Below the pieces are notes generated by a model that did no database searches, was not told where the DNA came from, and worked only from the letters and a program-made list of their open reading frames with translations. The position numbers were made by a program, and so were the translations under genes. Positions 24,412-42,102 of a stretch of 64,000 bases of DNA are shown here, piece by piece; the first letter of the stretch is position 1, and the number at the start of each line of letters is the position of its first letter. The stretch comes from an uncultured Gammaproteobacteria bacterium (lineage in GTDB: Bacteria; Pseudomonadota; Gammaproteobacteria; JAAEPA01), in contig CAVSWL010000005.1 in NCBI GenBank assembly GCA_963731655.1, positions 282,926 to 346,925 on the forward strand, written 5' to 3'.

Positions 24412-24515
24412 GGGTTGAATTCTCGTTGCCTGGTTAGGCTCAGCGCAAGTAATTGTGTGATGCTGGCCACTTGGGTAGTACATGCAATGTATTATCCAAA
24501 GCCTCTATCTCACCG

Positions 24516-26707: not shown

Positions 26708-29700
26708 ATGTGCCGTATGATCATCGCCCTATGCCTATTTCTCACGGCTGTATTTCTGGCCACTGACCTGCTAGTTCCGCTTGGCAAGGCACTGATCGTC
26801 CTCTACATCCTGGTAGTTCTCTTGGCGGGGCAGACCGGAACGCCTAGGATCCCCATTGCCTTTGCCGCGCTCAGCACGCTTTTCATCGGCATCGGCTGGG
26901 TCGTGGCGCCGGTGATCCATACCAGCGACCCCGCCTTCGTCGCCACGAACCGTTTGTTGGCTCTTTTCGTGGTCTGGGTAATCGCCGTCACGATTGCATT
27001 TCGGCTACGGACGGAACAAGCGCGATCCGCGGCCGACGAATTCACTCAAGCCATTCTCGAATCCACGCCTATCGCCTCCGTCGTGGTGGATGGGGAGGGC
27101 AGGATCGTACGGATTAATCGGCAGACGGAAGAGCTTTTCGGCTATGAGCGTGACGAGCTTCTCAACCAACCCGTGGAAATGCTCGTTCCCAGTGTAAACC
27201 GCGAGCGGCATGCGCGGGATCGGCTGACGTATCTGTCGCGGCCGCGAGCGCGGCCCATGGGACACGGACGTGCTTTGCTCGGACGGCGTAAGGACGACAG
27301 CACATTCCCCGTCGAAGTCGCGTTGAATCCCGTGGAGACGTCACAGGGTGTTCTCGTACTGGCGGCGGTAGTGGACATCACCGAACGCGAGAACGCCCGA
27401 GCAGCGCTGCAACAAAGCGAAAGACGTTTTCGGTCCACGTTCGAAAACGCCGCGGTGGGTATCGCACACGTCGCCATCGATGGCCATTGGTTGCGCGTCA
27501 ATCAGCGGCTTTGCGAGATCGTCGGTTACCCAGCACACGAACTGCTCGAGAAAACCTTCCAGGACATCACCCATCCCGACGATCTCAAGCAGGACTTGAC
27601 CTATGTTGGCCGGCTGCTCGCCGGCGAGATCGATAAGTACAGCATGGAGAAGCGGTATATCCACAAAGACGGCTCGATCGTGTGGATCAATCTGACGGTA
27701 TCGCTGGTACGTGATGAACGCGGTGAACCCAAGTACTTCCTCCCGGTGATCGAGGAGATTTCGCAGAAAAAGCGTGCCGAGCAATTCATGGCAGAGAGTA
27801 AGCGACAGTTGGAACGACAAACCAACGAACTGGAAACTTTATACCAAACGGCGCCGGTTGGCTTAGTCGTTGTTGATCGAGATCATCGAATCCTCAAGAT
27901 TAACCAATGGCTTGCGAAAAGTAACGGAGGTCAGGTACAGAACTGTATTGGCCGAAACTGCCGAGACTGCCGTGAGTTGCTGCCCGATATCGCAGAGCAA
28001 TTCGAAGCATTGATTGAACAGGTCTTTAACACCGGTCAGCCTGTGTTCGATGCCGAGATTCGCAGTGATATCTCCGAGAGTGATGTCGCGAAACGATTTT
28101 TTCTAGTTAATTATTCACCGATACACGCACCCGACGGGAAGGTGGATGCGGTTCAATGTGTCCTGAGCGATATTACGGACCGAATGCGCGCAGAGCAAGC
28201 GAAACGTCGTCGGGAACGTCGTTTTAGGGTCATGGCCGATTCGATCCCCGAGATCATCTTTACCAATAGAGCGGATGGCGCTTGCGATTATCAGAATGCG
28301 CGCTTCTATGAACTCACCGGCATGGCCTCGGGAGAGGCGCAAGGGTGGGGATGGACGGGGGCCTTGCATCCCGAAGACGCGCAGCGGTGCCGGGAGCAGT
28401 GGACAGCATCGGTACGTTCCGGCGCGCCCTATGAATGCCGCTATCGATTGCGACTGGCAGATGGCGAGTATCGCTGGTTTATGGCGCGTTCGCGCCCACT
28501 CTTCAATCGGGAAGGCAGGCTCATCCAATGGTTCGGCGCAGCCACCGATATCCACGACCTGGTGTTGGCTGAGAAGGCGCTAAGCGAAGCCCGTGCGGCG
28601 GCCGAAGTGGCCAACCGCGCCAAGAGCGAGTTTCTCGCTAACATGAGCCATGAGATCCGCACGCCCATGACCGCCATCATGGGTTTTTTGGATGTGTTGT
28701 TGTCGCATACCCCAGAACCGGACGATCTGCAATCCCTGCCAATTATCAAACGTAACGCTGCGTATTTGCTGGAGTTGATCAACGATATTCTGGATCTGTC
28801 CAAGATAGAAGCACACAAGTTGGAGTTCCACAAGACGCGTTTTTCTCTCCAGGAATTGGTCTCAGACGTCCATGGATCGATGAGCGTGTGCGCACGAGAA
28901 AAAGGCTTGCCGTTGAGCATCGAGTATGATGGACCTATCCCAGAAACCCTCGAAGGCGACCGTACGCGGGTCCGGCAGATTCTCATGAATTTAATCACCA
29001 ATGCGATTAAATTCACCGACCGGGGACAGGTACGAGTCATCATCCGATTTTTGTCCGATGAGGTCAATCCGGGAATTCAGTTCCAAGTGACCGATACCGG
29101 CATCGGAATCAAACCGCACGAATTGCGGAGGCTGTTTCAACCGTTTACCCAAGGCGATGGTTCCACCAAACGACAGCAGGGTGGCACGGGGCTGGGTTTG
29201 ACCATCACCAATCGTCTGGTCGAGAGTCTCGGTGGGCAGATTGCTGTGGATAGTCAACCCGGTAAAGGCAGCACCTTTACGGTAACGCTTCCCACCGCAG
29301 CTGTTAAGGAGCTTACCCTGATTGAGGCGGATAACTCTGTATTGTACGCGAGTTCGCCGTTCGCGGATCTGCGCAACCTGCAGCACAACTGCCGGGTGCT
29401 GGTGGTCGATGATCGAAGCGATATTCGCCTGTTGATTCGGCATTTCTTAGAGGAGGCGGGTGCCGAGGTTGCGACGGCCGGGAATGGCCGCAAGGCCATT
29501 GAGGCAATTGATGAGGCGCACAAGCAAGGCCAACCATTCGATGTGATTGTCATGGACATGCAAATGCCGGTGATGGATGGTTATACCGCCACGGCCGAGT
29601 TGCGCGGGCGAGGTTTTAAACGTCCCATCATCGCCTTGACGGCAAGCGCCATGAAGGGGGAACGAGAAGCCTGTCTTGCGGTTGGATGTGACGCTTATCT

Positions 29701-30196
29701 TAGCAAACCCATAACCCAAAGCGATTTAGTGGCCGCGGTCGCCCGATACAGTAGCGACGAGGACTATCGGGCATCGATCGCTAAGCACGCCCCAGAGCAC
29801 GATGCACCAACTCAGCAGCGAAACGACACGTGTCGCAAAGGAAATCCGTCACGCATTCTCGTGGTGGATGATCATAAGGATGCGGCCAATGCCACCGGAA
29901 CGTTACTGGAGCTGCTCGGTTACCAGGTGCGTGTGGCGCTCGATGGTGAATCGGCGCTCAACTGCGCACGCACGTATAGACCCCATGTCGCACTCTTGGA
30001 TTTGGGCTTGCCGGATATGCACGGTCATGATCTGCTCAGAGCGCTCAAGGCGCAAGGCTTGACTGCGACCCACTTCATCGCCTTGTCGGGTCGTAGCGAA
30101 CCAGAAGATGAAACGCAGGCGTTTGCTGTAGGTTTTAACCATTATCTGGTAAAGCCGTTGGATCTGGAGCGATTGAAATTGCTGTTGGCTGACTGA
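26708..30196 (+). CDS. multi-PAS hybrid sensor histidine kinase with two C-terminal receiver domains
   Basis: N-terminal membrane region, several PAS/PAC repeats, HisKA box SHEIRTPM, HATPase_c (GLGLTITNRLVE), and two REC domains (VLVVDD...DMQMP; ILVVDD...DLGLPDM). Confidence 0.85.
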   Translation: MCRMIIALCLFLTAVFLATDLLVPLGKALIVLYILVVLLAGQTGTPRIPIAFAALSTLFIGIGWVVAPVIHTSDPAFVATNRLLALFVVWVIAVTIAFRLRTEQARSAADEFTQAILESTPIASVVVDGEGRIVRINRQTEELFGYERDELLNQPVEMLVPSVNRERHARDRLTYLSRPRARPMGHGRALLGRRKDDSTFPVEVALNPVETSQGVLVLAAVVDITERENARAALQQSERRFRSTFENAAVGIAHVAIDGHWLRVNQRLCEIVGYPAHELLEKTFQDITHPDDLKQDLTYVGRLLAGEIDKYSMEKRYIHKDGSIVWINLTVSLVRDERGEPKYFLPVIEEISQKKRAEQFMAESKRQLERQTNELETLYQTAPVGLVVVDRDHRILKINQWLAKSNGGQVQNCIGRNCRDCRELLPDIAEQFEALIEQVFNTGQPVFDAEIRSDISESDVAKRFFLVNYSPIHAPDGKVDAVQCVLSDITDRMRAEQAKRRRERRFRVMADSIPEIIFTNRADGACDYQNARFYELTGMASGEAQGWGWTGALHPEDAQRCREQWTASVRSGAPYECRYRLRLADGEYRWFMARSRPLFNREGRLIQWFGAATDIHDLVLAEKALSEARAAAEVANRAKSEFLANMSHEIRTPMTAIMGFLDVLLSHTPEPDDLQSLPIIKRNAAYLLELINDILDLSKIEAHKLEFHKTRFSLQELVSDVHGSMSVCAREKGLPLSIEYDGPIPETLEGDRTRVRQILMNLITNAIKFTDRGQVRVIIRFLSDEVNPGIQFQVTDTGIGIKPHELRRLFQPFTQGDGSTKRQQGGTGLGLTITNRLVESLGGQIAVDSQPGKGSTFTVTLPTAAVKELTLIEADNSVLYASSPFADLRNLQHNCRVLVVDDRSDIRLLIRHFLEEAGAEVATAGNGRKAIEAIDEAHKQGQPFDVIVMDMQMPVMDGYTATAELRGRGFKRPIIALTASAMKGEREACLAVGCDAYLSKPITQSDLVAAVARYSSDEDYRASIAKHAPEHDAPTQQRNDTCRKGNPSRILVVDDHKDAANATGTLLELLGYQVRVALDGESALNCARTYRPHVALLDLGLPDMHGHDLLRALKAQGLTATHFIALSGRSEPEDETQAFAVGFNHYLVKPLDLERLKLLLAD

Positions 30197-30802
30197 AATC
30201 TTGCTTTAACTTTTTTAATCAACAGCTTGCGCGATTACACACAATAACTTGGGACATAAGACAAGGAGTCTTTGGCGCAAAGGGAGGGATATAACACGAC
30301 CAGGTCTGAAATTGTCCTTGAGCCTCTTTAAGAAGTCCTAGGTAGCTATCCGCACTCGCTATAAAAGCCACATTTGCTACAGTAATAGCAGCCGCCAAGG
30401 TCTCGAAAAAGATTGGCTCCCAGTATTCGGGCTTCCGTTCGTGTCGGGCCAAAGCGTGGGCTACGCAGTGACGCACTGCGTTAGCATCGAGTTTCTCCGG
30501 GGTGGCGCACTTCTACCGCAGAATAGAGAGGCATATCGGTTGAGGATTCATTGGATTGATGCGCTCACAGTTACTTTGGAAATGGCCGGTTCCGATATTC
30601 CCGTTAGAGACGGCATATCGAACAAAAGTAGGGAAAACTACACAGATGCCATTGCGGGACGGAATATCACTGTTCATCTTATTTGCGCTCTACTGGAATG
30701 GGTGAAGCTTGTTTTAAGATCTTGCCAGCGGAATAATCCAGGATTTCAAGGAGGGTGCCCCGTTCGAAAGTCTGACCGCCGCGGTCGAGTCGCCAGCTGT
30801 CC

Positions 30803-31267
30803 TCATCGGTCAGACAGTGGTCTATTCGGGTCGCTGAGCACACTCAGGACGACAGCCCCAAACGCAAGCAGAGTCAAGACGGCGGCTGATGCATGGGCGT
30901 ATTCCCATTGGGTTCGGAGTGCTTCCCAATTCTCTGGCACGCGCGTCCAGTTTTCCGTCGCCTGATTCGCGGGAAAGGTCCAAATGAAGAAAATCACTAG
31001 CGTTGCTGCCATGAAAAGAAATGCCGCGGTGGCCCAACCAAACGCCGCGCGCCGCCCTCGCATTACGATCGCGAGACTGAGATTGGACATAATAGCGCCT
31101 ACCAGGACAATGCCGAAGAACGCCCAGCCGCGATAAATGTCCTGCACGGTGAAATAAGCCTCCTGTGGTAGATCGATTTTGTTTGGAAGTACAGCAAGGT
31201 GGGCGCCAGCGGGAACCAGCGCCAGGGCTGTCAAAACGAGCGCCAGGAATTGTATTGTGCGTATCAT
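30803..31267 (-). CDS. small integral membrane protein (DUF1772-like, 4 TM)
   Basis: Start set at MIRTIQFLALV with an AGGCAGG SD. Four hydrophobic helices of ~154 aa total. Confidence 0.45.
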   Translation of the reverse strand: MIRTIQFLALVLTALALVPAGAHLAVLPNKIDLPQEAYFTVQDIYRGWAFFGIVLVGAIMSNLSLAIVMRGRRAAFGWATAAFLFMAATLVIFFIWTFPANQATENWTRVPENWEALRTQWEYAHASAAVLTLLAFGAVVLSVLSDPNRPLSDR

Positions 31268-31386
31268 GCTACCTGCCTTGGGTAAGGGAGAACCAGGATT
31301 TAATGGCTGGGGTATGTTCATAACGGAGTCGCCGTAGGGTAATACGAAAGGCTGTTCAACACTCAATCACACGGCTGGCTGCATGT

Positions 31387-31404
31387 CATTGCGTTTTTTC
31401 AATG
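31387..31404. promoter_or_regulatory. palindrome CATTGCGTTTTTTCAATG (family A site)
   Basis: In the divergent intergenic region, ~115 bp from both the membrane-protein gene and ccp. Confidence 0.45.
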
Positions 31405-31516
31405 AATACGGTTTTTTCCTCAAAGATAATATCCGGCAAAACTGTTTTCATCTGCTTGCAGCACTCGCCACCGATGCTTTTTGAGCTGTTCACGCGCAAC
31501 CGAGGAGAACAATAAA

Positions 31517-32671
31517 ATGACCAGTCTGGATAGAGGCCGAGCCATTGCGCTCGGTATTTTAATCACGGTATTGGACGTTCCAGTGATAAACGGCGCGCCG
31601 CTTGGTCTGCCCCCGGTGCCAATTCCGCCCGGCAATCTCCAGTCGGCGGCCAAGATTGCGCTTGGCGACCGGTTGTTTCACGAGGCGCGCTTCAGTAGCG
31701 ATGGCAAGGTGAGTTGCTCGACCTGTCACGCCGAAGACAAAGCCTTCACCGACCACCAGCGGGTGTCTAAAGGTCATAATGGCTTGCTCGGTACCCGCAA
31801 TGCCCCTACCGTCATCAACGCTGCCTACATGGAAACCCTGTTCTGGGACGGTCGCGAGCCCGATCTGGAGGGGCAGTCCAAGCAGCCCCCAGTCAATCCG
31901 GTGGAAGGCGGTCTGCCGGATCACGAAGCGTTGCTGGCGATCATTCGCGGTGATCCTTCCTACGTGAAGGCTTTCAAGAAAGTATTTGGCGTCGATGCCG
32001 AGGAGATCACCATTGATCATTACGCGCAAGCTATTGCCAGTTTCGAACGCACCCAGATCGCCGGCGACTCGCCCTTCGACCGCTACCAGTTCGGTGGCGA
32101 CAAGTCGGCCATGAGTGAAGCGGCTATCCGTGGTCTGGAAGTGTTCACCGGCCAGGGCCGCTGTGTGTCCTGCCACATTATCGAGCAGACCCAAGCCCTT
32201 TTCACCGACAATCGCTTCCACAACATCGGCGTGGGCTTCAAGAATATTAAAGGTCGTGAGGCGGTAATCGCCGCGGAGTTTCTGAAAGCAAAGAACGCCG
32301 GAGCAGATGTCGACAAGACAGTACTCGCTGACCCAGATGCCTCGGAGCTGGGACGCTTCGCGGTCAATGAGGACATCAACAAGATTGGCGCCTTCAAGAC
32401 CGCCACACTACGCAACATCGAGCTGACCCCGCCGTACATGCACGATGGCAGCCAGAAAACCTTGGAAGACATGGTCGAATTTTATAATAACGGCGGTCGA
32501 GTCCACGAGAGTGATCCGTTTTCGCCCTTTCTAAGCGGCGGCATTCGGCCTTTAAATCTCTCAGAGCAGCAGAAGAAAAATTTGGTCGAATTCCTCAAAG
32601 CGCTGACCAGCCCCAGCGTCGCCAAGCATGTGCCTAAAGTCGAGGTCATCGAAGTAAAGGAGGCTCCATGA
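31517..32671 (+). CDS. ccp: di-haem cytochrome c peroxidase (CcpA/MauG family)
   Basis: Two CXXCH motifs (CSTCHAED, CVSCHIIE), signal peptide, GAGGAGAA SD. Confidence 0.85.
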   Translation: MTSLDRGRAIALGILITVLDVPVINGAPLGLPPVPIPPGNLQSAAKIALGDRLFHEARFSSDGKVSCSTCHAEDKAFTDHQRVSKGHNGLLGTRNAPTVINAAYMETLFWDGREPDLEGQSKQPPVNPVEGGLPDHEALLAIIRGDPSYVKAFKKVFGVDAEEITIDHYAQAIASFERTQIAGDSPFDRYQFGGDKSAMSEAAIRGLEVFTGQGRCVSCHIIEQTQALFTDNRFHNIGVGFKNIKGREAVIAAEFLKAKNAGADVDKTVLADPDASELGRFAVNEDINKIGAFKTATLRNIELTPPYMHDGSQKTLEDMVEFYNNGGRVHESDPFSPFLSGGIRPLNLSEQQKKNLVEFLKALTSPSVAKHVPKVEVIEVKEAP

Positions 32672-33741
32672 GCAATATGAACCGTAGAACGTTTCTTAAG
32701 ACCGGAGGCGCGGCGCTGGCCGCCAGCAGCCTACCATTAAGTCTGGTGGAAATCGCCTTCGGCAAGTCGGAACCTGAGAGCTTCACCTTTGCCTTTATCT
32801 CCGACTCCCACATCACCCATATCCAGGGCAAGGAATTTGTGCGCAATTGGGATCGCGGGTTGGTCCGTGCCGTGGCGGAGACCAATCTGCTCGATCCGCG
32901 TCCGGACTTCGTCTTCTACGGTGGCGATATAGCTCAGCTCGGCATTCCCGAGGAGATCGATCACGGGCTGGAACTGCTTAGCGCTCTACGCGGCGATGTG
33001 CATTACGTCATGGGGGAGCACGATTATTACTTCGATTTGGGCGAACACTGGCGCGAGCGGCTCGGTCCCGATCACTACAGTTTCGACCACAAGGGCGTAC
33101 ACTTCGTGGTGCTGAATAGCATTCTCACCTATGACGACTGGACCTTTGACAAGTGGGACACGCCGATGCGGCGCATGAAGGAGATGGCGCGTCTGGATAA
33201 CCCCCAGGGATCGCCGTTCATGGTCGGCGACAAGCAACGCGATTGGCTCCGCAAGGATCTCGCCACGGTCAGCAAGGACACGCCGATCGTGGTGATGTCG
33301 CATTCGCCGCTACAGAAGATCTACAAGGGATGGAACTTCTGGACCGAGGACGCGGGGCAGGTACAGGAACTGCTCAAACCTTTCAATAAGGCGACTGTTC
33401 TGTATGGCCACGTGCACCAGATTCAGTACAACCAGATCGGCAACATCAGCTTCAACTCCGCCATGGCCACCGCCTGGCCCTGGCCCTACCCGGCCAGTTT
33501 CACCCAGGAAGCCAGCTATCTGCCTAAGCTGACGGTGGAAATGAACCGCGCCGATCCGTTTTTCGAACGCGACGCCACCGGCTGGCAGTTCATCAATTTG
33601 CAAACCGGCGATGCGGATGTCCACTACGTTTTACCCGACAACCGCAATCGTATCGTTGCCTTCAATGAAAACAAAGGCTACCCGGTCGACACCTATTATC
33701 AGCCGCAGTCAGACCGCATCCCGCCGCAGCACCACTTCTGA
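32668..33741 (+). CDS. Tat-exported calcineurin-like metallophosphoesterase
   Basis: Twin-arginine motif NRRTFLK. MPE motifs DSH, GGD, GEHDYY, NSILT, GHVH. Start overlaps the ccp stop (ATGA), suggesting translational coupling. Confidence 0.8.
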   Translation: MSNMNRRTFLKTGGAALAASSLPLSLVEIAFGKSEPESFTFAFISDSHITHIQGKEFVRNWDRGLVRAVAETNLLDPRPDFVFYGGDIAQLGIPEEIDHGLELLSALRGDVHYVMGEHDYYFDLGEHWRERLGPDHYSFDHKGVHFVVLNSILTYDDWTFDKWDTPMRRMKEMARLDNPQGSPFMVGDKQRDWLRKDLATVSKDTPIVVMSHSPLQKIYKGWNFWTEDAGQVQELLKPFNKATVLYGHVHQIQYNQIGNISFNSAMATAWPWPYPASFTQEASYLPKLTVEMNRADPFFERDATGWQFINLQTGDADVHYVLPDNRNRIVAFNENKGYPVDTYYQPQSDRIPPQHHF

Positions 33742-34257
33742 ATCGAGGCAAAGGAAACTGACATGAACATGATCGATCATCTTACACAACACCTCTTTAT
33801 TATGGCAGCTTTGTTGATAGCGCTTGGTCAAGGGGCACGGGCCGACGAATTCACCGGGTCCGATCTAGAACGCTGGAAACAGGAATACATGACCATGGTG
33901 AAAAAAGGCGAGCAGCTGTTTCACGGGGGTCTCCCAAGCAAGAACACGGTGTCCTGCGACCAGTGTCATCCAGACGCTGCCAATACACACCCGGAGACTT
34001 ACCCAAAATTTCAGCAGCAGCTCGGGAAGGTGGCCGTACTAGGCGAGATGGTCAACTGGTGCATCGAAAACCCGCTGGAGTCCGACCCGCTGGCGCTAGA
34101 TGATCCACGCATGACCGCCCTACAGGCCTATATCACGGAACAGAGGCGTGAAGTGCCGCTGGTACCCGGCACGCACTAGTACGTAAGTGCCGACCCGATA
34201 GAGTTACACCCCGGCACTACATTTACTTAACCTGAAATCTAGCGATCCGTAATCACC
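32692..34257. repeat. segmental duplication, copy 1 (MPE + cytochrome c genes)
   Basis: ~97% identical to 40559-42113. Confidence 0.8.
33763..34179 (+). CDS. small periplasmic mono-haem c-type cytochrome
   Basis: Signal peptide and a single CDQCH haem-binding motif; 22 bp downstream of the MPE gene. Confidence 0.7.
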   Translation: MNMIDHLTQHLFIMAALLIALGQGARADEFTGSDLERWKQEYMTMVKKGEQLFHGGLPSKNTVSCDQCHPDAANTHPETYPKFQQQLGKVAVLGEMVNWCIENPLESDPLALDDPRMTALQAYITEQRREVPLVPGTH

Positions 34258-34266
34258 ATGATTACT

Positions 34267-34299
34267 TGTAAGAACTACAGGGAAGTGTAAATTTTTAAA
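34267..34299. repeat. paired box TGTAAGAACTACAG-N4-GTGTAAATTTTTAAA (family B, site c; second box degenerate)
   Basis: Same structure as at 1379. Confidence 0.35.
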
Positions 34300-34541
34300 T
34301 CGATGGGCTCCGCTAGAGGCAGACAATAAGCCACCATGCGGGCACTCGCCGCCGCTGTCAAATGTACGTGCGAAAAGATCCGAGGTCAGCTCCCGCTCAT
34401 GAAGTCTAGATTCCGGATGCGTGAGATCCTGCTGTTCCCAAAGCGGAGCATTGCGCTTGTTACCTCCGAAGATCTTCGTCCGACTGCTTTCTGCAACGAC
34501 AACCCTGTTATTGCCCTCAGGAAAATCTCACCCCGGCCTTA

Positions 34542-34859
34542 TTAGGTTTCGAGCTCAGATGCCATTATACCGGCAGCGTGCCAACCGGCCGCTAACGTAA
34601 CCACAAGAATTACTCGTTTAAACCGGCGAGTGGCTGCCGGTGGGTCGTAGGTGGCGATTCGTTTCGGCGGTATACTGAATAGCCCTGGATTCATCCCCGC
34701 CAGCGCCACCTGAGAGTGTCCCGCGCTGTAGCACTCGAGGTAGCCACGACGCAGGGCCCAGGCATAATCGAGAAGGTTGTAAACGTGTGTGACGGGTGGG
34801 GTAAAGCTCAGTTGCGGGACGTTTTTGTGTAGTTTTTGGGCTATCTCGACCAGCTTCAC
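34542..34859 (-). pseudogene. SMUG-family uracil-DNA glycosylase, N-terminal part only
   Basis: LSFTPPVTHVYNLLDYAWALRRGYLECYSAGHSQVALAGMNPG matches the SMUG1 N-terminal region (YNPLDYAW...GMNPGP). Homology ends right after GMNPG and the ORF stops at ~105 aa of an expected ~240. Confidence 0.5.
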
Positions 34860-35085
34860 GATCCGGTCTCTACGGACGCAACCCTAGGATACCGCTCATC
34901 GAACCCGGACTATTGAACATGGCCTCAGACTCGGGACGCAGGATTGGAATTCGAACCACTTTAACAATTTCACAATCATTGCCGGGAGGTTGTATCCCTT
35001 CGCCCTTTTGGCTGGCATCGATTAGCGGTTCAGGGGACACCTGACTGGGGGGCTCGTGCTTGTAAGGTAGTAGGGTAGGGGCATA

Positions 35086-35295
35086 CGTCACAAGTTAACC
35101 AAATTAGGAAAATGTCAAGTTCCCTGGTAAAGAAAATTTTACTTTAATAATCATTAAATTACATGTCTGCCCGATGTGTTGTGGTCAGAATGGCAAAAGC
35201 TATTCACTTTTAGGTTTTTTTAACATATTGTTTTAATTTAGATTTTATTTCTTGACAAATCCACTTTTTTCCTAACTTGTGACGAATGGGGTAGG
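35086..35295. mobile_element. MITE-like element: 15-bp terminal inverted repeats around a 180-bp AT-rich core, flanked by a 9-bp direct repeat
   Basis: Left IR CGTCACAAGTTAACC and right IR CCTAACTTGTGACG (14/15 complementary). GGGTAGGGG sits immediately outside both ends (TSD-like). No coding capacity. Confidence 0.4.
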
Positions 35296-35373
35296 GGTCT
35301 TAAAACAATCTGGAAACACATTACCTAATTTCAGAACCCCTGACCTCGCCGGAAGCGAAATGGGACCTTGTCG

Positions 35374-35814
35374 TCATTCTTCCGGGGGGCCGGTGAGGGT
35401 GTAGGTAAGACGCAAAGTTGTTCCGGGGTACACGAATTCGGCAGCATTCAGGTGATCCAAGAGGTGCTGGATCGCTCGGTTCGAACGCGGGTTGGCCAGT
35501 GTGTGCAACCGTACCTCTAACACCCCCGCGGCCGCATCCGGATAAATGTCCGCGTCCGATCGGAACAGATCGCGGAGCAAGGAACGCGCCTTGTCGGCGT
35601 GCGACATCTTTTCTCGCACAATCATCGCCAACGCCGTTTCCGCGCGGTACGCCACCAGCTTGACCGTGTCCGTCAGTCGTTTGCGGCTCGGAGCCAAACG
35701 CTGGAACTTCTCGCCTTCCGGCAATTCGTCCCATTCCCAATGTTTGGGCGTGGACGGCATCCGTTCTTTCAAGACGGTCAATTCGTGCTCCAACTGCTCG
35801 ATCTCTTCCTGCAT
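35374..35814 (-). CDS. hypothetical coiled-coil protein, possibly a mobile-element remnant
   Basis: 146 aa from the ATG. The frame is open upstream to ~36031 without a further ATG. Lies between a MITE-like element and an IS110 fragment. Confidence 0.35.
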   Translation of the reverse strand: MQEEIEQLEHELTVLKERMPSTPKHWEWDELPEGEKFQRLAPSRKRLTDTVKLVAYRAETALAMIVREKMSHADKARSLLRDLFRSDADIYPDAAAGVLEVRLHTLANPRSNRAIQHLLDHLNAAEFVYPGTTLRLTYTLTGPPEE

Positions 35815-36381
35815 TTTGCCTTTCTCGCGCTCCCATTTCGTGATGTCCGACTCTTCAGCTTGCGGGTGAAGGGTCAGGGCTGCAAAGCGAGCTTGACGGT
35901 GCGTCAGTTTGCTCTTGACCGAGCGAAATTGCCGGTCCAGTTCCCGCCTGGCCGGGTTGACTACCGGCCGCGTGGTCCCAGAAATCGCTTCCGTTCCGTA
36001 TTCACTAAGTGCATCCAGGGCTAACTGAGGATTTTAGGATCATTGATGGGAGCCCTCGATTCGGGTAAAAAGGGGGGGGCGTCTATATTTTCTATACTCA
36101 TGCTCGCGTTGAGGCTAGAGGTGCGGCCCCGTGTTAAAGTGTAGCGGCTCAAATATGTTCGGCGATGATCGATCCTATCGTGGTGATTAGACCCCGGCAA
36201 CAAAACGGATCTGGGGGGGGTTGGAGTTGCACCTCTGATAGTTTCCCACCCCTTGGTGGTGAACGCACGGTAAAGTAGTTCTTAAGGCGGAGTGTCAGGT
36301 AGCCCCAGCCGCCTGTCGATACGGGTTTAAAGTAGGGTAGGCACGTCCCCTTCTCGATAGGTCCTTTGAGGAGGTGTCATC

Positions 36382-36618
36382 ATGATAGAGCCGTTAGTTC
36401 GGTGCTGTGCGGGATTGGATGTACACAAAGCGGTGGTGGTCTGCACAGTACTTCAAGAACACCCAAAAGGAGAGTTGAGTAAGGAAACGTGCGAGTATGC
36501 CACGTTTATTGGCGAAGTAACCGTACTGGCCAGCTGGTTAGCGTCGCTAGGCGTTGAATTGGCGGTCATGGAGAGTACGGGTGTTACTCTCGTCCGCTCA
36601 CGTGACAGGATAAAATAG
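36382..36618 (+). pseudogene. IS110-family transposase N-terminal fragment
   Basis: ...CAGLDVHKAVVVCTVL...LASLGVELAVMESTGV matches the IS110/DEDD transposase N-terminus (GIDVxK...VAMEATG). Truncated at 78 aa. Confidence 0.6.
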
Positions 36619-38139
36619 ATGACTGCCAACTCAAACTCGAATCAAAACTCGGCCAAGGAGAAGGTCGCCGACCGTTGTACTAGCGGCGTCGAAGGCCTCG
36701 ACGATATCCTGGCCGGCGGCCTGCCGCGCAACTGTTTCTATCTGGTGCAAGGCGACCCCGGTTCGGGCAAGACCACCTTGGCCTTGCAATTTCTCCTTGA
36801 AGGAGTGCGGCGAGGCGAAAAGGTCTTCTACATCACGCTTTCGGAAACGAAAGCGGAACTGCTGATGGTCGCCCGATCGCACGGTTGGTCGCTGGATAAC
36901 ATTCCACTACTGGAGATGTCGGCTATCGAATCTCTTCTTCGCCCGGAAGCGCAGACCACCGTGTTTCATCCCTCGGAATTGGAACTGACTAAGGTAACGA
37001 AGCTATTACTCGACGAGACGCGCGCGGCCGAGCCCTCGCGAATTGTATTTGATTCACTCTCCGAGTTTCGCTTAATGGCGGAAGCGCAGTTGCGTTATCG
37101 GCGGCAATTATTGAATCTCAAGCAGGAGTTCGCCAAGCTGCAAAGCTCAGTGCTGCTCCTGGACGACAAGATGAGCGGCCAGGGGATCCAAGCAGATCCG
37201 CACGTGCTCAGCCTCTCACATGGAGTCATAGAGATGGAACAGCTCGCGCCTGACTACGGCACTTCGCGCCGGCGTTTGCGCGTGCTCAAAATGCGCGGCG
37301 TAAAGTTTCGCGAGGGCTATCACGATTACACAATCGTGACTGGTGGCCTGCGTATTTTCCCAAGGCTGATTGCGGCCGAACATCACAGGGCGTTTGTGCA
37401 TGACGCAGTATCCAGCGGGATAGATGAGTTGGATAAGTTGTTGGGCGGTGGATTAGACCGCGGAACGACTACACTAATGCTGGGCGCCGCAGGTACGGGC
37501 AAATCCACTTTGGCGATGCAATTCGCGGCGCAGATGGCCGCGCGAAACGAGCCCGGCATGATTTTCACCTTCGACGAAAGCCTCGGCATTATGCTCGGCC
37601 GGGCGAAGGCCCTGGGCTTCGATTTGGAAAAGCACTTGCGAAGCGGTGTCGTGACTGCGCATCAGGTTGACCCTGCTGAACTATCGCCCGGCGAGTTCGC
37701 GGTCCGAGTGCGGCAGGGCGTGGAAGCCGGGGCCAAGCTTGTCATCATCGATAGTCTCAATGGTTATCTCAATGCCATGCCGGGCGAGAAATATCTCAAT
37801 ATCCAGCTACATGAACTTTCGTCGTATCTGAACCAGCAAGGCGTCATCACTATTCTGATTCTGGCACAACACGGATTGATCTCTCTGGCCGTATCACCGG
37901 TCGATCTCAGCTATTTGACGGATACGGTGGTGTATCTCCGGTATTTTGAAGTAGCCGGAGAGGTAAAGCAGGCGCTCGCCGTAGTTAAGAAGCGCAGTGG
38001 TCGTCACGAAAAAACGATTCGTGAATTCAAGTTGGAATCCGATCGTGGGATTCGCGTTGGTGAGTCGTTGAAAGAATTTCATGGCGTTTTGACGGGCGCG
38101 CCAGTGTTCGAAGGCACCGATAAACGAATGATGAAATAA
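36619..38139 (+). CDS. KaiC-like double-domain RecA-superfamily ATPase
   Basis: Two tandem KaiC domains, each with Walker A (GDPGSGKTTLALQF; GAAGTGKSTLAMQF) and Walker B. AGGATAAAA SD. Confidence 0.85.
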   Translation: MTANSNSNQNSAKEKVADRCTSGVEGLDDILAGGLPRNCFYLVQGDPGSGKTTLALQFLLEGVRRGEKVFYITLSETKAELLMVARSHGWSLDNIPLLEMSAIESLLRPEAQTTVFHPSELELTKVTKLLLDETRAAEPSRIVFDSLSEFRLMAEAQLRYRRQLLNLKQEFAKLQSSVLLLDDKMSGQGIQADPHVLSLSHGVIEMEQLAPDYGTSRRRLRVLKMRGVKFREGYHDYTIVTGGLRIFPRLIAAEHHRAFVHDAVSSGIDELDKLLGGGLDRGTTTLMLGAAGTGKSTLAMQFAAQMAARNEPGMIFTFDESLGIMLGRAKALGFDLEKHLRSGVVTAHQVDPAELSPGEFAVRVRQGVEAGAKLVIIDSLNGYLNAMPGEKYLNIQLHELSSYLNQQGVITILILAQHGLISLAVSPVDLSYLTDTVVYLRYFEVAGEVKQALAVVKKRSGRHEKTIREFKLESDRGIRVGESLKEFHGVLTGAPVFEGTDKRMMK

Positions 38140-38143
38140 GACG

Positions 38144-39763
38144 ATGCCGCTGACCAAATCAGAGGAGCGGATCATCATCATGGCGCCGATAGGACAAGAC
38201 GCCAGAGCTATGGCCATGCTGCTAGAGCCCGAAGGTTTTCAGCCTGAGATTGTGAGTGGTCCCGCGCAATGTTGCGAAAAACTTTCTGATGCGGGCGCGG
38301 TATTGTTGACCGAGGAAGCGTTGGAACTGCCGCAAGTTGCCGACCTGATCGATACTCTCGAGGCGCAGCCGCCATGGTCTGAATTGCCGCTAATCGTGTT
38401 GACTAGTGGTGGAGAATCTCGGCTGGCTAAGTTGTTGGATTTGCTGGCCGAAGCAGCTGGAAGTGTTACCCTGCTCGAGCGCCCGATGAGCGCAGCCACT
38501 CTGCTGCGTTCGGTTCAAGTGGCCCTGCGTTCACGACGCCGCCAATATCAGGTGCGTGACTTGCTTGAGCGTCAACAGATCCTGCGCGGCGAAGCAGAAG
38601 AAGCTAACCGCATTAAAGATGAATTTCTCGCCACTGTCTCTCATGAGTTACGCACGCCGCTGAATGCAATTTTGGGATGGGCGACGCTGATCCGCCAAGC
38701 CAGAGCGGATGAGCATACCCTCGCTCGGGCGATTGAAACGATTGAACGCAATGCGAAAGCCCAAGCGCAACTGATCGAAGACCTGCTGGATGTTTCACGA
38801 ATGATCTCAGGCAACCTACGGCTCAACGTGGAACAAATCGACCTTGTATCGGTTATCAAAGCAGCCGTCGACGTCGTCCATCCGGCGGTGGAAGCCAAGG
38901 GTATTCAATTGGATTTGGATCTGGACTTCGTCGACCGCTTGGAAGCGGATGCCCATCGCCTGCAACAAGTTGTTTGGAATTTTCTGTCCAATGCAGTCAA
39001 GTTTACGGGCGCTGGCGGACGAGTTCAGATCAGGCTGGAACAAGTTGAGTCTCAAGCTCGAATCACAGTGAGCGATACTGGCGAAGGCATCGATCCCGAA
39101 TTCCTGCCGCACATCTTCGAACCGTTCCGGCAGGCTGACGGCACGAGCACGAAACGAAGTGGCGGACTGGGGTTGGGGCTCGCCATCGCGCGCCGTCTCG
39201 TCGAAATGCATGGCGGAACCATCTCCGCGAAAAGTGAAGGCGCAGGGCGCGGTTCGACTTTTACGCTCGGTATTCCCATGAGACCAGTTCACGAGACATT
39301 ACCGGCACTAGCGCGTACTTCCGAAGGTTCGCTGTTACACACCTCCAGTTCAGACACGGACCTGCCGAGTCTTACTGGCGTAAGGATTCTGGCGGTCGAC
39401 GATGAAAAAGACACGCGCGAGATGGTCAAAGAAGTGCTCGAGCAATTCGGCGCGAATGTTTTGTCTGCCGGGTCAGCCAGGGAAGCGTTCGCCGCACTTC
39501 ATGACTGGAACCCGGACGTCATTGTGTGTGACATCGGAATGCCGGGCGAAGACGGCTATTCCTTGATTCGGAAAGTCAGACAGTTGGAATCTCACCGGGA
39601 TAGAAACACACCTGCAATTGCACTGACGGGATTTGCACGCCCGGAAGATCGCAAATGCGCACTAGCCGCCGGCTATCAGATGTTCATACCGAAACCCGTC
39701 GAGGCGAATCAATTAGTCAGCACCATAGCCAAGCTGATTGGGACAGCTAATGGCCAACACTAA
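38144..39763 (+). CDS. hybrid histidine kinase: N-terminal pseudo-receiver, HisKA-HATPase core, C-terminal receiver
   Basis: N-terminal REC-like fold lacking the acidic pocket ([12 protein letters not shown] in place of DD; AVLLTEE in place of the phospho-Asp). H-box [14 protein letters not shown], HATPase_c ([16 protein letters not shown]), C-terminal REC (ILAVDDEKD...[11 protein letters not shown]). Starts 4 bp after the kaiC-like stop. Confidence 0.8.
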
Positions 39764-40032
39764 AGAGAGCGGCTCGATTGAAAAGTTGCGAAGATTGTCC
39801 AGTGCGGAGAGCCGGATAGCATGATCGTGACGGTCTTCATGATGAGTGAAAGATGAGGGACCTACGTGCGTTGACCAGTCTGACGTTACTTGCTTTGACG
39901 GCCAAAACATCGATAAATACTGCTTGGTCATGCATAGTACCCGAAACAAAAACACAACATCACTACTGATGACCGAAAGAGCGATACCGAGATGAGCGCG
40001 CCATAGCATAAATCTTTCTTATCACTGGATGC

Positions 40033-40400
40033 TTAGGTGAACAACCTATAACCCTCCAGATCGAGATAAATTCTCTGGAACAAATGCTGAATATTACCGA
40101 TCCCATAGCAACGACGTTGAAGCACCTTGTTCTTGTTGTTCAGCCCCTCGACAAAGCCACTGGTATGGCGGTTATGGAAATAAATTGGTGATGTCCTCCA
40201 TTCGCGCGTCCACTCGCTCGATTGCCCTGTTATTTTTAAGCCGCTAAGAAGTCGAGTCGACGACAACATTAAATTTACGATCCAGCATCCTGGCTATCGT
40301 TTTATTTTGAAATTTCTCTAGCGCGGTCAGCGGTGCGGGGATATTACGCTTCTTTTTCATGACGACGGTCACCGAGTGGGCGTATCCGATATATGGGGGA
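40033..40400 (-). pseudogene. ISL3-family transposase C-terminal remnant (frameshifted)
   Basis: ...HTSGFVEGLNNKNKVLQRRCYGIGNIQHLFQRIYLDLEG matches the ISL3 C-terminus (NGxVEGxNNKIKVLKRRAYG). The upstream segment is in another frame. Confidence 0.55.
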
Positions 40401-40612
40401 GGGCTATTTAGGAGTTTAAAAGGAATCCCGCAAATAACAAAATCTTACTTTCAAATCAGCTTAAAATGCTTATGTACTCCATGAATGCCTCGTTTTTATC
40501 TATTTTAAAGGATTTTTCTATCTATTAAATTTCTCTCCCTCACTTATCAGATGCGCCCTTTCTTAAGACCGGAGGCGCGGCGCTGGCCGCCAGCAGCCTA
40601 CCATTAAGTCTG

Positions 40613-41608
40613 GTGGAAATCGCCTTCGGTAAGTCGGAACCCGAGAGCTTCTCCTTTGCCTTTGTCTCAGACTCCCACATCACCCATATCCAAGGGAAGG
40701 AGTTCGTGCGCAATTGGGACCGCGGGCTGATTCGTGCCGTGGCGGAGACCAATCTGCTCGATCCGCGCCCGGACTTCATCTTCTACGGTGGCGATATAGC
40801 TCAGCTCGGCATTCCCGAGGAGATCGATCACGGGCTGGATCTGCTTAGCGCTCTACGCGGCGATGTGCATTACGTCATGGGGGAGCACGATTATTACTTC
40901 GATTTGGGCGAACACTGGCGCAAGCGGCTCGGTCCCGATCACTACAGTTTCGACCACAAGGGCGTACACTTCGTGGTGCTGAATAGCATTCTCACCTATG
41001 ACGACTGGACCTTTGACAAGTGGGACACGCCGATGCGGCGCATGAAGGAGATGGCGCGTCTGGATAACCCCCAGGGATCGCCGTTCATGGTCGGCGACAA
41101 GCAACGCGATTGGCTCCGCAAGGATCTCGCCACGGTCAGCAAGGACACGCCGATCGTGGTGATGTCGCATTCGCCGCTACAGAAGATCTACAAGGGATGG
41201 AACTTCTGGACCGAGGACGCGGGGCAGGTACAGGAACTGCTCAAACCTTTCAATAAGGCGACTGTTCTGTATGGCCACGTGCACCAGATTCAGTACAACC
41301 AGATCGGCAACATCAGCTTCAACTCCGCCATGGCCACCGCCTGGCCCTGGCCCTACCCGGCCAGTTTCACCCAGGAAGCCAGCTATCTGCCTAAGCTGAC
41401 GGTGGAAATGAACCGCGCCGATCCGTTTTTCGAACGCGACGCCACCGGCTGGCAGTTCATCAATTTGCAAACCGGCGATGCGGATGTCCACTACGTTTTA
41501 CCCGACAACCGCAATCGTATCGTTGCCTTCAATGAAAACAAAGGCTACCCGGTCGACACCTATTATCAGCCGCAGTCAGACCGCATCCCGCCGCAGCACC
41601 ACTTCTGA
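40613..41608 (+). CDS. metallophosphoesterase paralog, 5'-truncated (no start codon or complete Tat signal)
   Basis: ~97% identical to 32668-33741, but the copy begins within the signal peptide. The track ORF starts at an in-frame GTG. Confidence 0.55.
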   Translation: MEIAFGKSEPESFSFAFVSDSHITHIQGKEFVRNWDRGLIRAVAETNLLDPRPDFIFYGGDIAQLGIPEEIDHGLDLLSALRGDVHYVMGEHDYYFDLGEHWRKRLGPDHYSFDHKGVHFVVLNSILTYDDWTFDKWDTPMRRMKEMARLDNPQGSPFMVGDKQRDWLRKDLATVSKDTPIVVMSHSPLQKIYKGWNFWTEDAGQVQELLKPFNKATVLYGHVHQIQYNQIGNISFNSAMATAWPWPYPASFTQEASYLPKLTVEMNRADPFFERDATGWQFINLQTGDADVHYVLPDNRNRIVAFNENKGYPVDTYYQPQSDRIPPQHHF

Positions 41609-41629
41609 ATCGAGGCAAAGGAAACTGAC

Positions 41630-41986: not shown

Positions 41987-42102
41987 CCGCCCTACAGGCC
42001 TATATCACGGAGCAGAGGCGTAAGGTGCCGTTAGCACCGGGTACGCACTAGTACCCAAGTGCTGATCCGATGGAGTTTAATTTCGGCACGATATTTTCTT
42101 AA

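Follow-up and report, generated by a model that had tools for sequence, protein, structure and literature searches.

Within the 64,000-nucleotide stretch of DNA analysed here (the window), three adjacent genes encode a di-haem enzyme, a metallophosphoesterase-fold (MPE) protein and a small c-type cytochrome (Table 1). The ATG of the di-haem gene is preceded by the ribosome-binding site GAGGAG; an alternative TTG lies upstream at 31481 in the open reading frame listing, and the orthologues align from the ATG instead. The MPE start codon and the stop codon of the di-haem gene share the sequence ATGA (32668–32671), as the preliminary description had stated. It also correctly placed a mono-haem cytochrome downstream of the MPE, with the spacing given as 22 bp; we count 21 nt after the MPE stop codon. 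Its view of a translationally coupled operon for periplasmic proteins is supported. An Rfam scan of positions 30000–43000 returned no RNA family.

Table 1 Features of the operon, its upstream region and the second copy (window coordinates).
Feature	Position	Strand	Description
Palindrome CATTGCGTTTTTTCAATG	31387–31404		CATTG-N8-CAATG; core TTG-N8-CAA, resembling FNR/FixK/CRP-type boxes
GATAAT, candidate −10 hexamer	31425–31430	+	Read directly in the sequence
Di-haem gene	31517–32671	+	MauG-type enzyme, 384 aa; ATG start
MPE gene	32668–33741	+	Tat-exported MPE-fold binuclear-metal protein, GEHD subfamily, 357 aa
Cytochrome gene	33763–34179	+	Single-domain SoxA/TsdA-type mono-haem cytochrome c, 138 aa
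Transposase remnants between copies	35374–36618		Transposase_29 C-terminal fragment (minus strand) and ORF 36382–36618
Second MPE copy	40559–41608	+	5′-truncated; no start codon or twin-arginine motif
Second cytochrome copy	41630–42051	+	5-bp insertion near codon 113, giving a frameshift; conserved C-terminus lost

The order di-haem gene, MPE gene, cytochrome gene is kept, wherever the contig allows, in 80 of 80 loci, these being the best from at least 513 species genomes in which a relative is encoded. This is far beyond chance, and the objection that the preliminary description had anticipated, that the order might be missing from related genomes, falls away. The trio stays together even where the MPE is only 35–53% identical to the window protein (loci L085, L088 and L177), and in Thiohalobacter the operon is flanked by unrelated housekeeping genes. 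Of the three proteins, the MPE is the best conserved, and the trio never lacks it. Hosts include sulfur oxidisers, methanotrophs, methylotrophs and sulfate reducers, and two-gene relatives of the module are present in Ralstonia solanacearum, Burkholderia cenocepacia and Sinorhizobium meliloti. Synteny kept inside one clade is not independent evidence; independent support comes from four carrier types and a few fusions, described below. The combination had earlier been held not to match a known pathway, and a search of the published literature on MPEs with MauG-type, di-haem, SoxA or cupredoxin partners agreed, yielding no publication on the module. We conclude that the module is real, widespread and uncharacterised.

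The di-haem protein matches Pfam CCP_MauG (1.4e-53) and carries two CxxCH motifs (C67/C70/H71 and C216/C219/H220) conserved in 74 of 74 orthologues, the set over which its residues were scored. At the E-haem ligand position stands Tyr323, again Tyr in all 74, which aligns (as fragment residue 103) with MauG chain residue 294, with MbnH ‘IYSEGG’ and with the Met of the N. europaea CCP (‘VETM’). Other residues include the inter-haem Trp110, Gln120, Glu130 and the Ca-site Asn95/Thr304/Pro306, and the bCCP distal-His position is not conserved among the orthologues. Canonical peroxidases of the CcpA type combine two CxxCH motifs in a CCP_MauG fold with His-Met ligation of the E-haem (PMC11892367). 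The window protein shares the former and not the latter, and by alignment has the Tyr at the E-haem axial position that marks MauG-type enzymes. The original label ‘cytochrome c peroxidase’ therefore gives way, on the invariant Tyr323, to assignment by sequence as MauG-type and not CcpA-type. Scores against the NCBIfam models for MbnH (TIGR04039; 240 bits, cut-off 363) and MauG (TIGR03791; 197 bits, cut-off 444) both lie below threshold, which points to a separate subfamily. The best solved relative is MbnH (PDB 6e1c, so identified from a homologue search with its sequence), aligning over the full length at 6.7e-44, and BthA (6nx0) is distant (9e-8). E-haems of the MauG type have His-Tyr ligation and potentials of about −100 to −200 mV (PMC11892367), and His/Tyr ligation with a low potential is likewise predicted for this E-haem. 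BthA is Tyr-ligated yet a good peroxidase, with a kcat/KM of 1.6e6 M−1 s−1 (PMC6405878).

The MPE matches Pfam Metallophos (1.4e-11) and shows the fold and the DxH / GD / GNH[DE] / H / GHxH motifs of the PF00149 superfamily. The twin-arginine signal reported earlier is confirmed by the TAT_signal profile (PF10518; 25.2 bits, cut-off 22.7) and the motif NRRTFLK; the arginine pair is conserved in 81/81 sequences and found in most distant relatives. Predicted metal ligands are D46, H48, D87, E117 (replacing Asn), H212, H248 and H250, joined by H118/D119, Q90, the motif TAWPWPYP and the invariant aromatics W222, W225, W270, W272 and Y274. Judged by these motifs, the MPE is a distinct Tat-exported subfamily in which GEHD replaces GNHD. 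By fold, it is nearest to phosphodiesterases and purple acid phosphatases (PAPs). Compared with the class III phosphodiesterases GpdQ and Rv0805 and with PAPs, the window protein is about 20% identical, has GEHD for GNHD, carries a Tat signal and some 90 additional residues in a C-terminal beta region, has an obligatory electron-carrier neighbour, and is without the PAP Tyr ligand: GDxxY reads GDIAQ, with Gln90 invariant and His at that place in distant clades. Subtyping matched no characterised phosphatase, the scores falling far below cut-off for CpdA/Icc (NF008359; 26.5 bits, cut-off 225) and for the NCBIfam model of SpdA (26 bits, cut-off 400). Nor does the protein conform to SoxB, for which an MPE domain with a 5′-nucleotidase-type C-terminal domain and close structural similarity are expected. 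Public records nevertheless carry it as ‘Icc protein / 3′,5′-cyclic AMP phosphodiesterase CpdA’ or ‘metallophosphoesterase’, and no identical copy was found in public assemblies. An AF2 model rose from a pLDDT of 57 with 35 close orthologues to 79.6 once distant relatives were added. The hydrolytic apparatus (His118/Asp119 of GEHD and all metal ligands) is fully kept, so a hydrolase role is possible.

The third protein has a Sec signal peptide and one haem motif, C65-x2-C68-H69. It scores 49.9 bits (cut-off 27) against PF21342, the SoxA-TsdA domain. Cys100 occupies the axial-ligand position, corresponding in alignments to chain residue 96 of TsdA and to the haem-1 Cys of SoxA (‘INAC’), and is conserved in 78 of 78 sequences; H76 and H138 are invariant. 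The protein does not have the two-domain, di-haem architecture of SoxA and TsdA, since its 138 aa form one domain with one CxxCH, and it reaches 46.8 bits against a cut-off of 110 for the SoxA equivalog TIGR04484. Its description as a small c-type cytochrome thus holds as to the single haem and is refined to a SoxA/TsdA-type domain with a conserved Cys ligand, which makes the Sox analogy drawn earlier more apt than its reader knew. The alignment predicts His/Cys ligation, which would imply a low potential.

Every MPE clade inspected is tied to an electron carrier, a link that the preliminary description overlooked. The carrier is a SoxA-type cytochrome in some, including the rhizobial clade. 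Among 73 distant loci, a type-1 copper cupredoxin gene lies directly downstream of the MPE in 44 and a class I cytochrome c gene beside it in 4; Ralstonia and Burkholderia likewise have the MPE–cupredoxin arrangement. In some relatives the MPE is fused to Rieske, cupredoxin or haem domains, with two of the linkers unlike signal peptides. In Phyllobacterium the module is directly upstream of cbb3-type oxidase genes. Such consistent pairing with, or fusion to, electron carriers indicates that the MPE is probably a redox enzyme and not a plain phosphatase. The di-haem gene is less constant: it is found in 0 of 80 loci of the cupredoxin clade, and is not nearby in the rhizobial clade, which keeps the SoxA-type cytochrome. 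The di-haem enzyme therefore appears to serve as an optional redox partner, not as a maturase on which the MPE depends. The WPWPY motif follows the SoxA-type cytochrome, being present in the rhizobial clade and absent from L085, which has a di-haem gene.

The family-A palindrome that had been noted ahead of the operon is confirmed, with 11 sites of the family in the window against 2.6 expected, a number reached in 0 of 100 shuffles. It was recovered solely by direct pattern search; inverted-repeat searches and consensus promoter and terminator scans around the operon gave nothing useful, and the latter did not report the GATAAT. The palindrome is probably the operator of the operon, and the position of the candidate −10 hexamer would suit a promoter of class II, the palindrome being centred near −41.5. 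Locus L009 has a near-identical box, TTGCGTTTTATCAA, about as far upstream, and L004, L043 and L010 also have good boxes upstream. Across orthologous loci, FNR-like boxes are weakly enriched (14 of 72, about 9.5 expected), so the FNR link depends on the window and its closest relatives. The operon has its upstream palindrome in common with the Fe/Mn superoxide dismutase gene. An OxyR-type regulator gene is divergently upstream in 27 of 69 loci; none adjoins the operon in the window itself. Oxidative-stress regulators near relatives comprise OxyR and an ECF sigma factor with a zinc-finger (zf-HC2) anti-sigma factor.

Taken together, these observations lead us to propose, at something just short of an even chance, that the trio is a self-contained periplasmic electron-transfer module running from a redox MPE through the cytochrome to an H2O2-using di-haem enzyme. 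The MPE would acquire two metal ions in the cytoplasm before Tat export, with Glu in place of the usual Asn ligand, and would be the catalytic, redox-active part, oxidising a small periplasmic substrate, which we would guess to be a sulfur oxyanion (sulfite or thiosulfate) or Fe(II). Electrons would pass singly to the dedicated SoxA/TsdA-type cytochrome, a low-potential donor to which the low-potential His/Tyr E-haem would be suited. The di-haem enzyme would take H2O2 as the terminal oxidant of the chain and may additionally activate the MPE by oxidation, and expression would be tied to peroxide and low-oxygen signals. Several points stand against this reading: the hydrolytic residues of the MPE are intact, no OxyR gene adjoins the operon in the window, FNR-like boxes are weakly enriched across orthologous loci, and, to our knowledge, all MauG-type enzymes with an assigned function modify a partner protein and none serves as an electron sink. 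More tentatively still, the GEHD branch of MPEs may be an unrecognised class of periplasmic oxidoreductases that perform redox catalysis at the binuclear centre and exchange electrons with cytochromes c, cupredoxins or Rieske domains, here coupled to H2O2 through a MauG-type enzyme. We know of no earlier redox enzyme family on the MPE fold, and the GEHD branch would be the first.

The foremost alternative, which we consider unlikely, takes MauG/MbnH-style maturation as its model. The di-haem enzyme, through a bis-Fe(IV) state formed with H2O2, would oxidise an aromatic residue of the MPE or the cytochrome to a protein-derived cofactor or metal ligand, and the mature MPE would use the cytochrome as acceptor, much as in MauG/methylamine dehydrogenase/amicyanin. 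The invariant Tyr323 and the unconserved distal-His position are as in MauG, the closest solved relative, MbnH, installs kynurenine on its neighbour's product MbnP, the ATGA couples translation of the di-haem and MPE genes, and the five invariant MPE aromatics offer candidate targets. BthA, moreover, always has a putative purple acid phosphatase as its neighbour, a partner that the authors of the BthA study suggested it oxidises. Against this, the carrier is kept in many MPE clades where no di-haem gene is nearby (the cupredoxin and rhizobial clades above), so the core function of the MPE needs no such maturase. The occurrence of WPWPY goes with that of the SoxA-type cytochrome, not with that of the di-haem enzyme, which itself scores under the curated MauG and MbnH cut-offs.

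We regard as improbable a miniature Sox-like sulfur oxidation, in which the cytochrome would attach thiosulfate or sulfite to a Cys (its own haem ligand or one on a carrier protein), the MPE would free sulfate as a SoxB-like hydrolase, and the di-haem enzyme or the respiratory chain would take the electrons. It accommodates the SoxA/TsdA domain with its conserved active-site Cys, the hydrolytic residues of the MPE and the many hosts that oxidise sulfur or reduce sulfate (Thiogranum, Thiohalobacter, Thiocapsa, Thiodiazotropha, Desulfobacteraceae). On S. meliloti pSymA the module even has soxY and soxZ as neighbours, together with genes for a cytochrome c and an FAD oxidoreductase. That neighbourhood is not general, however: soxYZ is missing beside the module in S. 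fredii, Rhizobium and Phyllobacterium, and neither soxY nor soxZ occurs within 6 kb of the trio, whether in the window or at the 80 close loci. The cupredoxin-linked clade of soil bacteria, Ralstonia and Burkholderia is without nearby sulfur genes, and methanotrophs and methylotrophs are also among the hosts.

A comparably slim prospect is that the MPE genuinely works as a phosphodiesterase or phosphatase in the periplasm, with a di-iron-type centre that functions only in one oxidation state; the cytochrome or, in other clades, a cupredoxin would hold that state, and the di-haem enzyme would remove inactivating H2O2. Mammalian PAPs provide the precedent, as they are active in the Fe(III)-Fe(II) form and inactivated by oxidation. 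The intact catalytic motifs, the nearest folds and the nearby oxidative-stress regulators fit this account, which explains a one-electron carrier without new chemistry. It is weakened by the replacement of the defining PAP Tyr ligand with the invariant Gln90 and by neighbourhoods in which inspection found no phosphate-regulon or phosphate-transport genes. Furthermore, we know of no case in which a dedicated, sometimes fused, electron carrier merely sets the redox state of a hydrolase. Very improbable, and already largely refuted, is ordinary peroxide defence by a CcpA-type peroxidase and its cytochrome donor with an unrelated Icc/CpdA-like phosphodiesterase between them by chance: the CCP_MauG match, the OxyR neighbours and the public annotation of the MPE are outweighed by the invariant Tyr in place of Met, the low CpdA score, the retention of the MPE as the best-conserved member and the persistence of the MPE–carrier pairing where there is no peroxidase gene.

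Among known systems, the mau cluster likewise sets a Tyr-bearing CCP_MauG di-haem enzyme beside a periplasmic enzyme and its dedicated small carrier, and the inter-haem Trp, Ca-site residues, Gln and Glu of MauG are conserved in the window protein. The partner here is an MPE-fold metal protein and not a quinoprotein precursor, and the carrier is a SoxA/TsdA-type cytochrome, with cupredoxins in that role in distant MPE clades. MbnH resembles the window enzyme in acting on the product of a neighbouring gene, although the neighbour here is not an MbnP-type copper protein. With SoxAX/SoxB and TsdA the window shares the SoxA/TsdA domain and its conserved Cys ligand, and, as for SoxB, a Tat-signal MPE-family protein beside such a cytochrome. 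E. coli Ccp (YhjA) is tri-haem, quinol-linked and canonically Met-ligated, and so differs from the two-haem Tyr323 enzyme. YhjA, the enzyme of peroxide respiration under OxyR/FNR control, is cited as a periplasmic CCP-family enzyme with H2O2 as acceptor at low oxygen, a respiratory substrate under anoxia; the OxyR neighbours and FNR-like box at window-type operons imply similar regulation. For a Tyr-ligated di-haem enzyme paired with an MPE-superfamily protein, BthA/PhosA of Burkholderia is the only published case we found (PMC6405878). Both genes are induced under anaerobic growth, and PhosA, the putative purple acid phosphatase of the pair, has a predicted outward-facing position at the outer membrane (PMC6405878). 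BthA has neither the inter-haem Trp nor the Ca site (PMC11892367), both of which the window protein retains in its residues, and the partner of the Burkholderia GEHD-family MPE that we found is a cupredoxin, not BthA.

Should the MPE-fold protein prove to be a redox enzyme, many genome annotations would be misleading and a well-studied fold would gain a new catalytic use; GEHD MPEs could then be a missing enzyme for oxidising an oxyanion or metal in the periplasm, for example sulfite, thiosulfate, phosphite or Fe(II). The module would add a third kind of partner for MauG-type enzymes, after quinoprotein precursors and MbnP, would give a testable context for the unexplained BthA–phosphatase pairing, and suggests a route by which periplasmic H2O2 serves as oxidant in low-oxygen habitats. 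MPE relatives occur in genetically tractable hosts, so the question is directly testable.

A second MPE and cytochrome pair had been taken as a sign that the module matters. The pair is present at 40559–42120, 96% identical to 32692–34247, though not in intact form. The homology sets in immediately after the twin arginines, the interval from the upstream stop to the junction contains no start codon, and the frameshift removes from the cytochrome G136 and H138, both invariant in orthologues. A functional paralogue is accordingly rejected; as a broken remnant of a rearrangement, the copy says nothing about the importance of the module. By a synteny argument, the transposase remnants between the copies mark the rearrangement behind the duplication; we read ORF 36382–36618 as an IS110-like N-terminal fragment, for which Pfam gave no family. 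The two MPE copies differ at 17 nucleotides with a dN/dS of 0.15, and this low value suggests either recent decay of the second copy or gene conversion.

Three consecutive plus-strand genes encode a di-haem protein, a metallophosphoesterase-fold protein (MPE) with a Tat signal, and a small cytochrome, as the preliminary description had it. The close packing and Pfam families agree: CCP_MauG for the di-haem protein (1.4e-53), Metallophos for the MPE (1.4e-11, with TAT_signal also over its cut-off and an N-terminus reading NRRTFLK), and PF21342, the SoxA/TsdA cytochrome c domain, for the cytochrome (3.2e-13; 49.9 bits versus a cut-off of 27). Upstream on the same strand lies a gene for a hybrid histidine kinase of 1162 aa that has multiple PAS and two receiver domains. 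Divergent from the operon is a gene for a predicted membrane protein of 187 aa; it has no Pfam or NCBIfam match and is not conserved beside the trio in other genomes.

Coordinates of features in the window or, where a locus (L) is named, in another genome
Feature	Position	Strand	Remarks
Di-haem protein, 384 aa	31517-32671	+	ATG start, GAGGAG ahead
MPE, 357 aa	32668-33741	+	ATG shares ATGA with di-haem stop codon
Cytochrome, 138 aa	33763-34179	+	21-nt spacer before; own AAGGAAA ribosome-binding site
Palindrome CATTGCGTTTTTTCAATG	31387-31404		Centre 31395.5; upstream of operon
GATAAT	31425-31430		Candidate -10
18-bp palindrome sites	4243, 8455, 15386, 17514, 17716, 18554, 24516, 31387		Form CATTGA-N6-TCAATG
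Fe/Mn superoxide dismutase gene	14569-15183	minus	Palindrome upstream
HlyD/RND efflux operon	18569-22977		Palindrome upstream
Cyclopropane-fatty-acid (CFA) synthase gene	23218-24483	minus	Palindrome upstream
DDE_3/IS630-type transposase gene	1485-2585
Multi-PAS hybrid histidine kinase gene	26708-30196	+
187-aa membrane protein gene	30803-31366	minus
Interval between copies	34260-40558
Transposase_29 C-terminal remnant	35374-35814	minus	Between copies
ORF read as IS110-like N-terminal fragment	36382-36618		Between copies
KaiC-like double-domain ATPase gene	36619-38139		Between copies
Hybrid histidine kinase/receiver gene	38144-39763		After KaiC-like gene
Copy 2	40559-42120		Matches 32692-34247
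MgtC and PolX/PHP DNA polymerase gene	42908-45997		Adjoin copy 2
PolX orthologue after trio, related genome	L002 9403-10895
CFA synthase orthologue after trio, Thiogranum	L004 8147-9264
MPE-cupredoxin pair, B. cenocepacia chromosome 2	L174 4659-6135
Sigma/anti-sigma/MPE/cupredoxin, R. solanacearum megaplasmid	L175 3292-6220
Rhizobial cluster: SCO copper chaperone, CarboxypepD_reg-like protein, GEHD-type MPE, SoxA-type cytochrome	L172 3146-6447		SCO gene on minus strand; equivalents in L176, L178, L179

The gene order holds across genomes. With one genome scanned per species, at least 513 species encode a relative, and di-haem protein, MPE and cytochrome follow one another in all of the best 80 loci, as far as each contig reaches. 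Among the hosts are Thiogranum, Thiohalobacter, Thiocapsa, Thiodiazotropha, Sedimenticola and Woeseiaceae, as well as Methylococcales, Methylophilaceae, Steroidobacteraceae, Desulfobacteraceae, Desulfobulbaceae and Syntrophaceae. Thiohalobacter has the trio on its own, flanked by thrS-infC-rpmI-rplT-pheST and uvrB, and the trio is still intact where the MPE is 35-53% identical to that of the window (L085, L088 and, on a Methylocystis plasmid, L177). Only one neighbour recurs, a LysR regulator of the OxyR type that is transcribed divergently, found at 27 of the 69 loci with enough upstream DNA and mostly 87-300 nt from the trio; its top NCBIfam match is OxyR (232 bits, under the 329-bit cut-off) and it holds a CxxxxxxxxC motif.

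The key finding is the association of the MPE family with electron carriers. For a distant clade with ~33% identity to the window MPE, 80 loci from soil metagenomes were sampled. The next gene downstream of the MPE encodes a secreted type-1 copper cupredoxin at 44 of 73 of these loci (Cupredoxin_1 51.9 bits, Copper-bind 43.4 bits in Pfam; C-x2-H-x-M ligand motif in 41/44) and a class I cytochrome c at 4 of 73, while a di-haem gene lies within 3 kb of the MPE at 0 of 80. Upstream there are often an ECF sigma factor and a zinc-finger (zf-HC2) anti-sigma factor. The same layout is annotated on a Ralstonia solanacearum megaplasmid, where the pair also adjoins genes for a Bfd-like 2Fe-2S protein and a ferritin, and the MPE-cupredoxin pair recurs in B. 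cenocepacia. This two-gene form of the Burkholderiaceae combines a Tat-signal MPE of the GEHD type with a cupredoxin that bears the annotation 'cytochrome c oxidase subunit II', and its plant- and human-associated carriers offer tractable systems in which to test the family.

Rhizobial MPEs share ~39% identity with that of the window and belong to a conserved cluster of four genes on megaplasmids, whose CarboxypepD_reg-like product contains the motif HNTH...CDAHGWM, reminiscent of a type-1 copper site. Genes for soxY, soxZ, a cytochrome c and an FAD oxidoreductase stand beside this cluster in S. meliloti pSymA only; in Phyllobacterium genes for cbb3-type oxidase subunits follow it directly. 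Where near-full-length representatives have a domain fused to the MPE, it is in every case one for electron transfer: Rieske (P0183), cupredoxin (P0192, P0222) and a CxxCH haem domain (P0259), with Ala/Pro/Thr-rich linkers in P0183 and P0192 that are unlike signal peptides. Since four carrier types are adjacent or fused to it, in clades with different regulators, we argue that the MPE-fold protein itself probably takes part in electron transfer.

The di-haem protein had been called a di-haem cytochrome c peroxidase. The family placement stands, but the protein is, as judged from its residues, MauG-type and not CcpA-type, the decisive one being Tyr323 at the E-haem ligand position. This residue (FYNNGG; Tyr in 74/74 orthologues) aligns with MauG chain residue 294 and with the Tyr of MbnH 'IYSEGG', where N. 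europaea CCP has Met ('VETM'). His-Met versus His-Tyr E-haem ligation divides canonical from MauG-type enzymes, and MauG-type E haems lie at about -100 to -200 mV (PMC11892367). W110, the inter-haem Trp, is kept in 72/74 orthologues; Gln120 and Glu130 are conserved too, as are Asn95, Thr304 and Pro306 of the Ca site. Where canonical enzymes place their resting-state distal His, the residue varies (F 39, I 22, H 9, V 4). The nearest solved relative is 6e1c (6.7e-44, full length), which a homologue search with its sequence identified as MbnH. Canonical peroxidases score about equally, chiefly across the N-terminal domain, MauG reaches 1e-29 and BthA, a Tyr-ligated Burkholderia enzyme (6nx0), just 9e-8. 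The NCBIfam scores fall below both the MbnH (240 versus 363) and the MauG (197 versus 444) cut-offs; the protein forms a separate MauG-type subfamily. MauG with methylamine dehydrogenase and amicyanin, and MbnH with MbnP, nevertheless resemble the trio in architecture, and we file it with these systems of a di-haem enzyme plus partner as a variant not described before. That the combination is not a known pathway, as first supposed, agrees with searches of the literature covered here, which gave nothing on the module; their one hint that di-haem and MPE proteins pair is BthA and a neighbouring putative purple acid phosphatase, both anaerobically induced (PMC6405878).

The cytochrome, first described as small and mono-haem, indeed has a single CxxCH (C65, C68, H69). 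In alignments its Cys100 (NWC) matches TsdA chain residue 96 as well as the Rhodovulum SoxA haem-1 Cys, and Cys100, H76 and H138 are invariant among 78 orthologues. The single CxxCH and the aligned Cys place it as single-domain kin of the two-domain SoxA/TsdA proteins, with predicted His/Cys haem ligation.

The MPE keeps the seven positions of the binuclear site complete and invariant (D46, H48, D87, E117, H212, H248, H250). E117 replaces the usual Asn ligand, turning GNHD into GEHD, in 81/81 orthologues and in at least 90% of relatives down to 29% identity. Neither subtype raised earlier, purple-acid-phosphatase-like or Icc-like, fits: the purple acid phosphatase tyrosine of GDxxY is an invariant Gln, and the CpdA and SpdA families score ~26 bits where 225 and 400 would be needed, so public 'Icc/CpdA' names are fold-level guesses. 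The family is compact, with 83 relatives at E <= 1e-30 and 527 at E <= 1e-10 in an exhaustive search of 1.84 billion representatives, and orthologues from different orders are still 68-88% identical. The structure model from a diverse alignment has a pLDDT of 79.6.

Tentatively, and with a little less than even confidence, we favour reading the three genes as a periplasmic electron-transfer module. The Tat-exported binuclear MPE-fold enzyme would oxidise a small periplasmic substrate and hand electrons to its His/Cys cytochrome, and the MauG-type di-haem enzyme would use them up with H2O2; it may additionally activate the MPE. BthA combines Tyr ligation with good peroxidase turnover and does not accept horse-heart cytochrome c as donor (PMC6405878), as would fit an enzyme that requires a special one. 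Two arguments favour an electron sink over an obligatory maturase: MPE clades that keep a carrier often have no di-haem gene, and a His/Cys donor of low potential would go well with a His/Tyr E haem whose potential is also low. The chance that this branch of MPEs represents a new class of periplasmic oxidoreductases is substantial, though clearly short of even. Maturation of the MPE by the di-haem enzyme, in the manner of MauG or MbnH, is unlikely.

A miniature Sox-like hydrolytic pathway has in its favour the likeness of the cytochrome domain and Tat-exported MPE to SoxAX/SoxB. The trio nonetheless does not qualify as SoxB or SoxA by domain architecture, structure or scores (cytochrome 46.8 against a SoxA equivalog cut-off of 110) and is not accompanied by SoxYZ, and we consider such a pathway distinctly improbable. 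A similarly small probability attaches to a redox-switched true phosphoesterase. Because the His118/Asp119 pair is kept, the MPE may be a hydrolase. A conventional CcpA operon carrying a passenger gene, which the CCP_MauG family might suggest and Tyr323 contradicts, is very improbable.

The palindrome noted upstream of the operon is present and belongs to a family enriched across the window: CATTG-N8-CAATG with at most one mismatch occurs at 11 sites versus 2.6 expected, and 0 of 100 shuffles reach 11. Its core, TTG-N8-CAA (TTGA-N6-TCAA), resembles FNR/FixK/CRP boxes, and relative to the palindrome centre GATAAT may be placed as the -10 of a class II activated promoter. Palindromes ahead of the superoxide dismutase, CFA synthase and RND efflux genes suggest that the family marks a single regulon for stress or low oxygen. 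Comparable boxes occur at comparable distances upstream of the operon in its nearest relatives; across all orthologous loci boxes are weakly enriched (14/72 versus about 9.5 expected). Rfam gave no RNA element in the operon region.

A second MPE-cytochrome region (copy 2), 96% identical to the operon under study, had been taken as a sign of the module's importance. It is a rearrangement scar and lends that inference no support. Homology begins directly past the twin-arginine codons, with unrelated DNA bearing an in-frame stop upstream; no ATG, GTG or TTG precedes the junction in the MPE, and the first usable start gives a product without signal peptide. In the cytochrome, a 5-bp insertion near codon 113 removes G136 and H138, both invariant in the 78 orthologues, and identity drops past the frameshift. 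The missing start and signal peptide and the frameshifted cytochrome rule out a maintained paralogue. The MPE parts differ at just 17 sites (dN/dS 0.15), so either the event is recent or gene conversion has acted. PolX adjoins copy 2, not copy 1, but follows the intact trio in L002, which indicates that the window locus is rearranged relative to relatives; in Thiogranum a CFA synthase orthologue comes after the trio. The IS630-type transposase and the remnants at 35-36.6 kb show that mobile elements shaped the region. The KaiC-like ATPase and hybrid kinase between the copies form a non-cyanobacterial KaiC-kinase pair.
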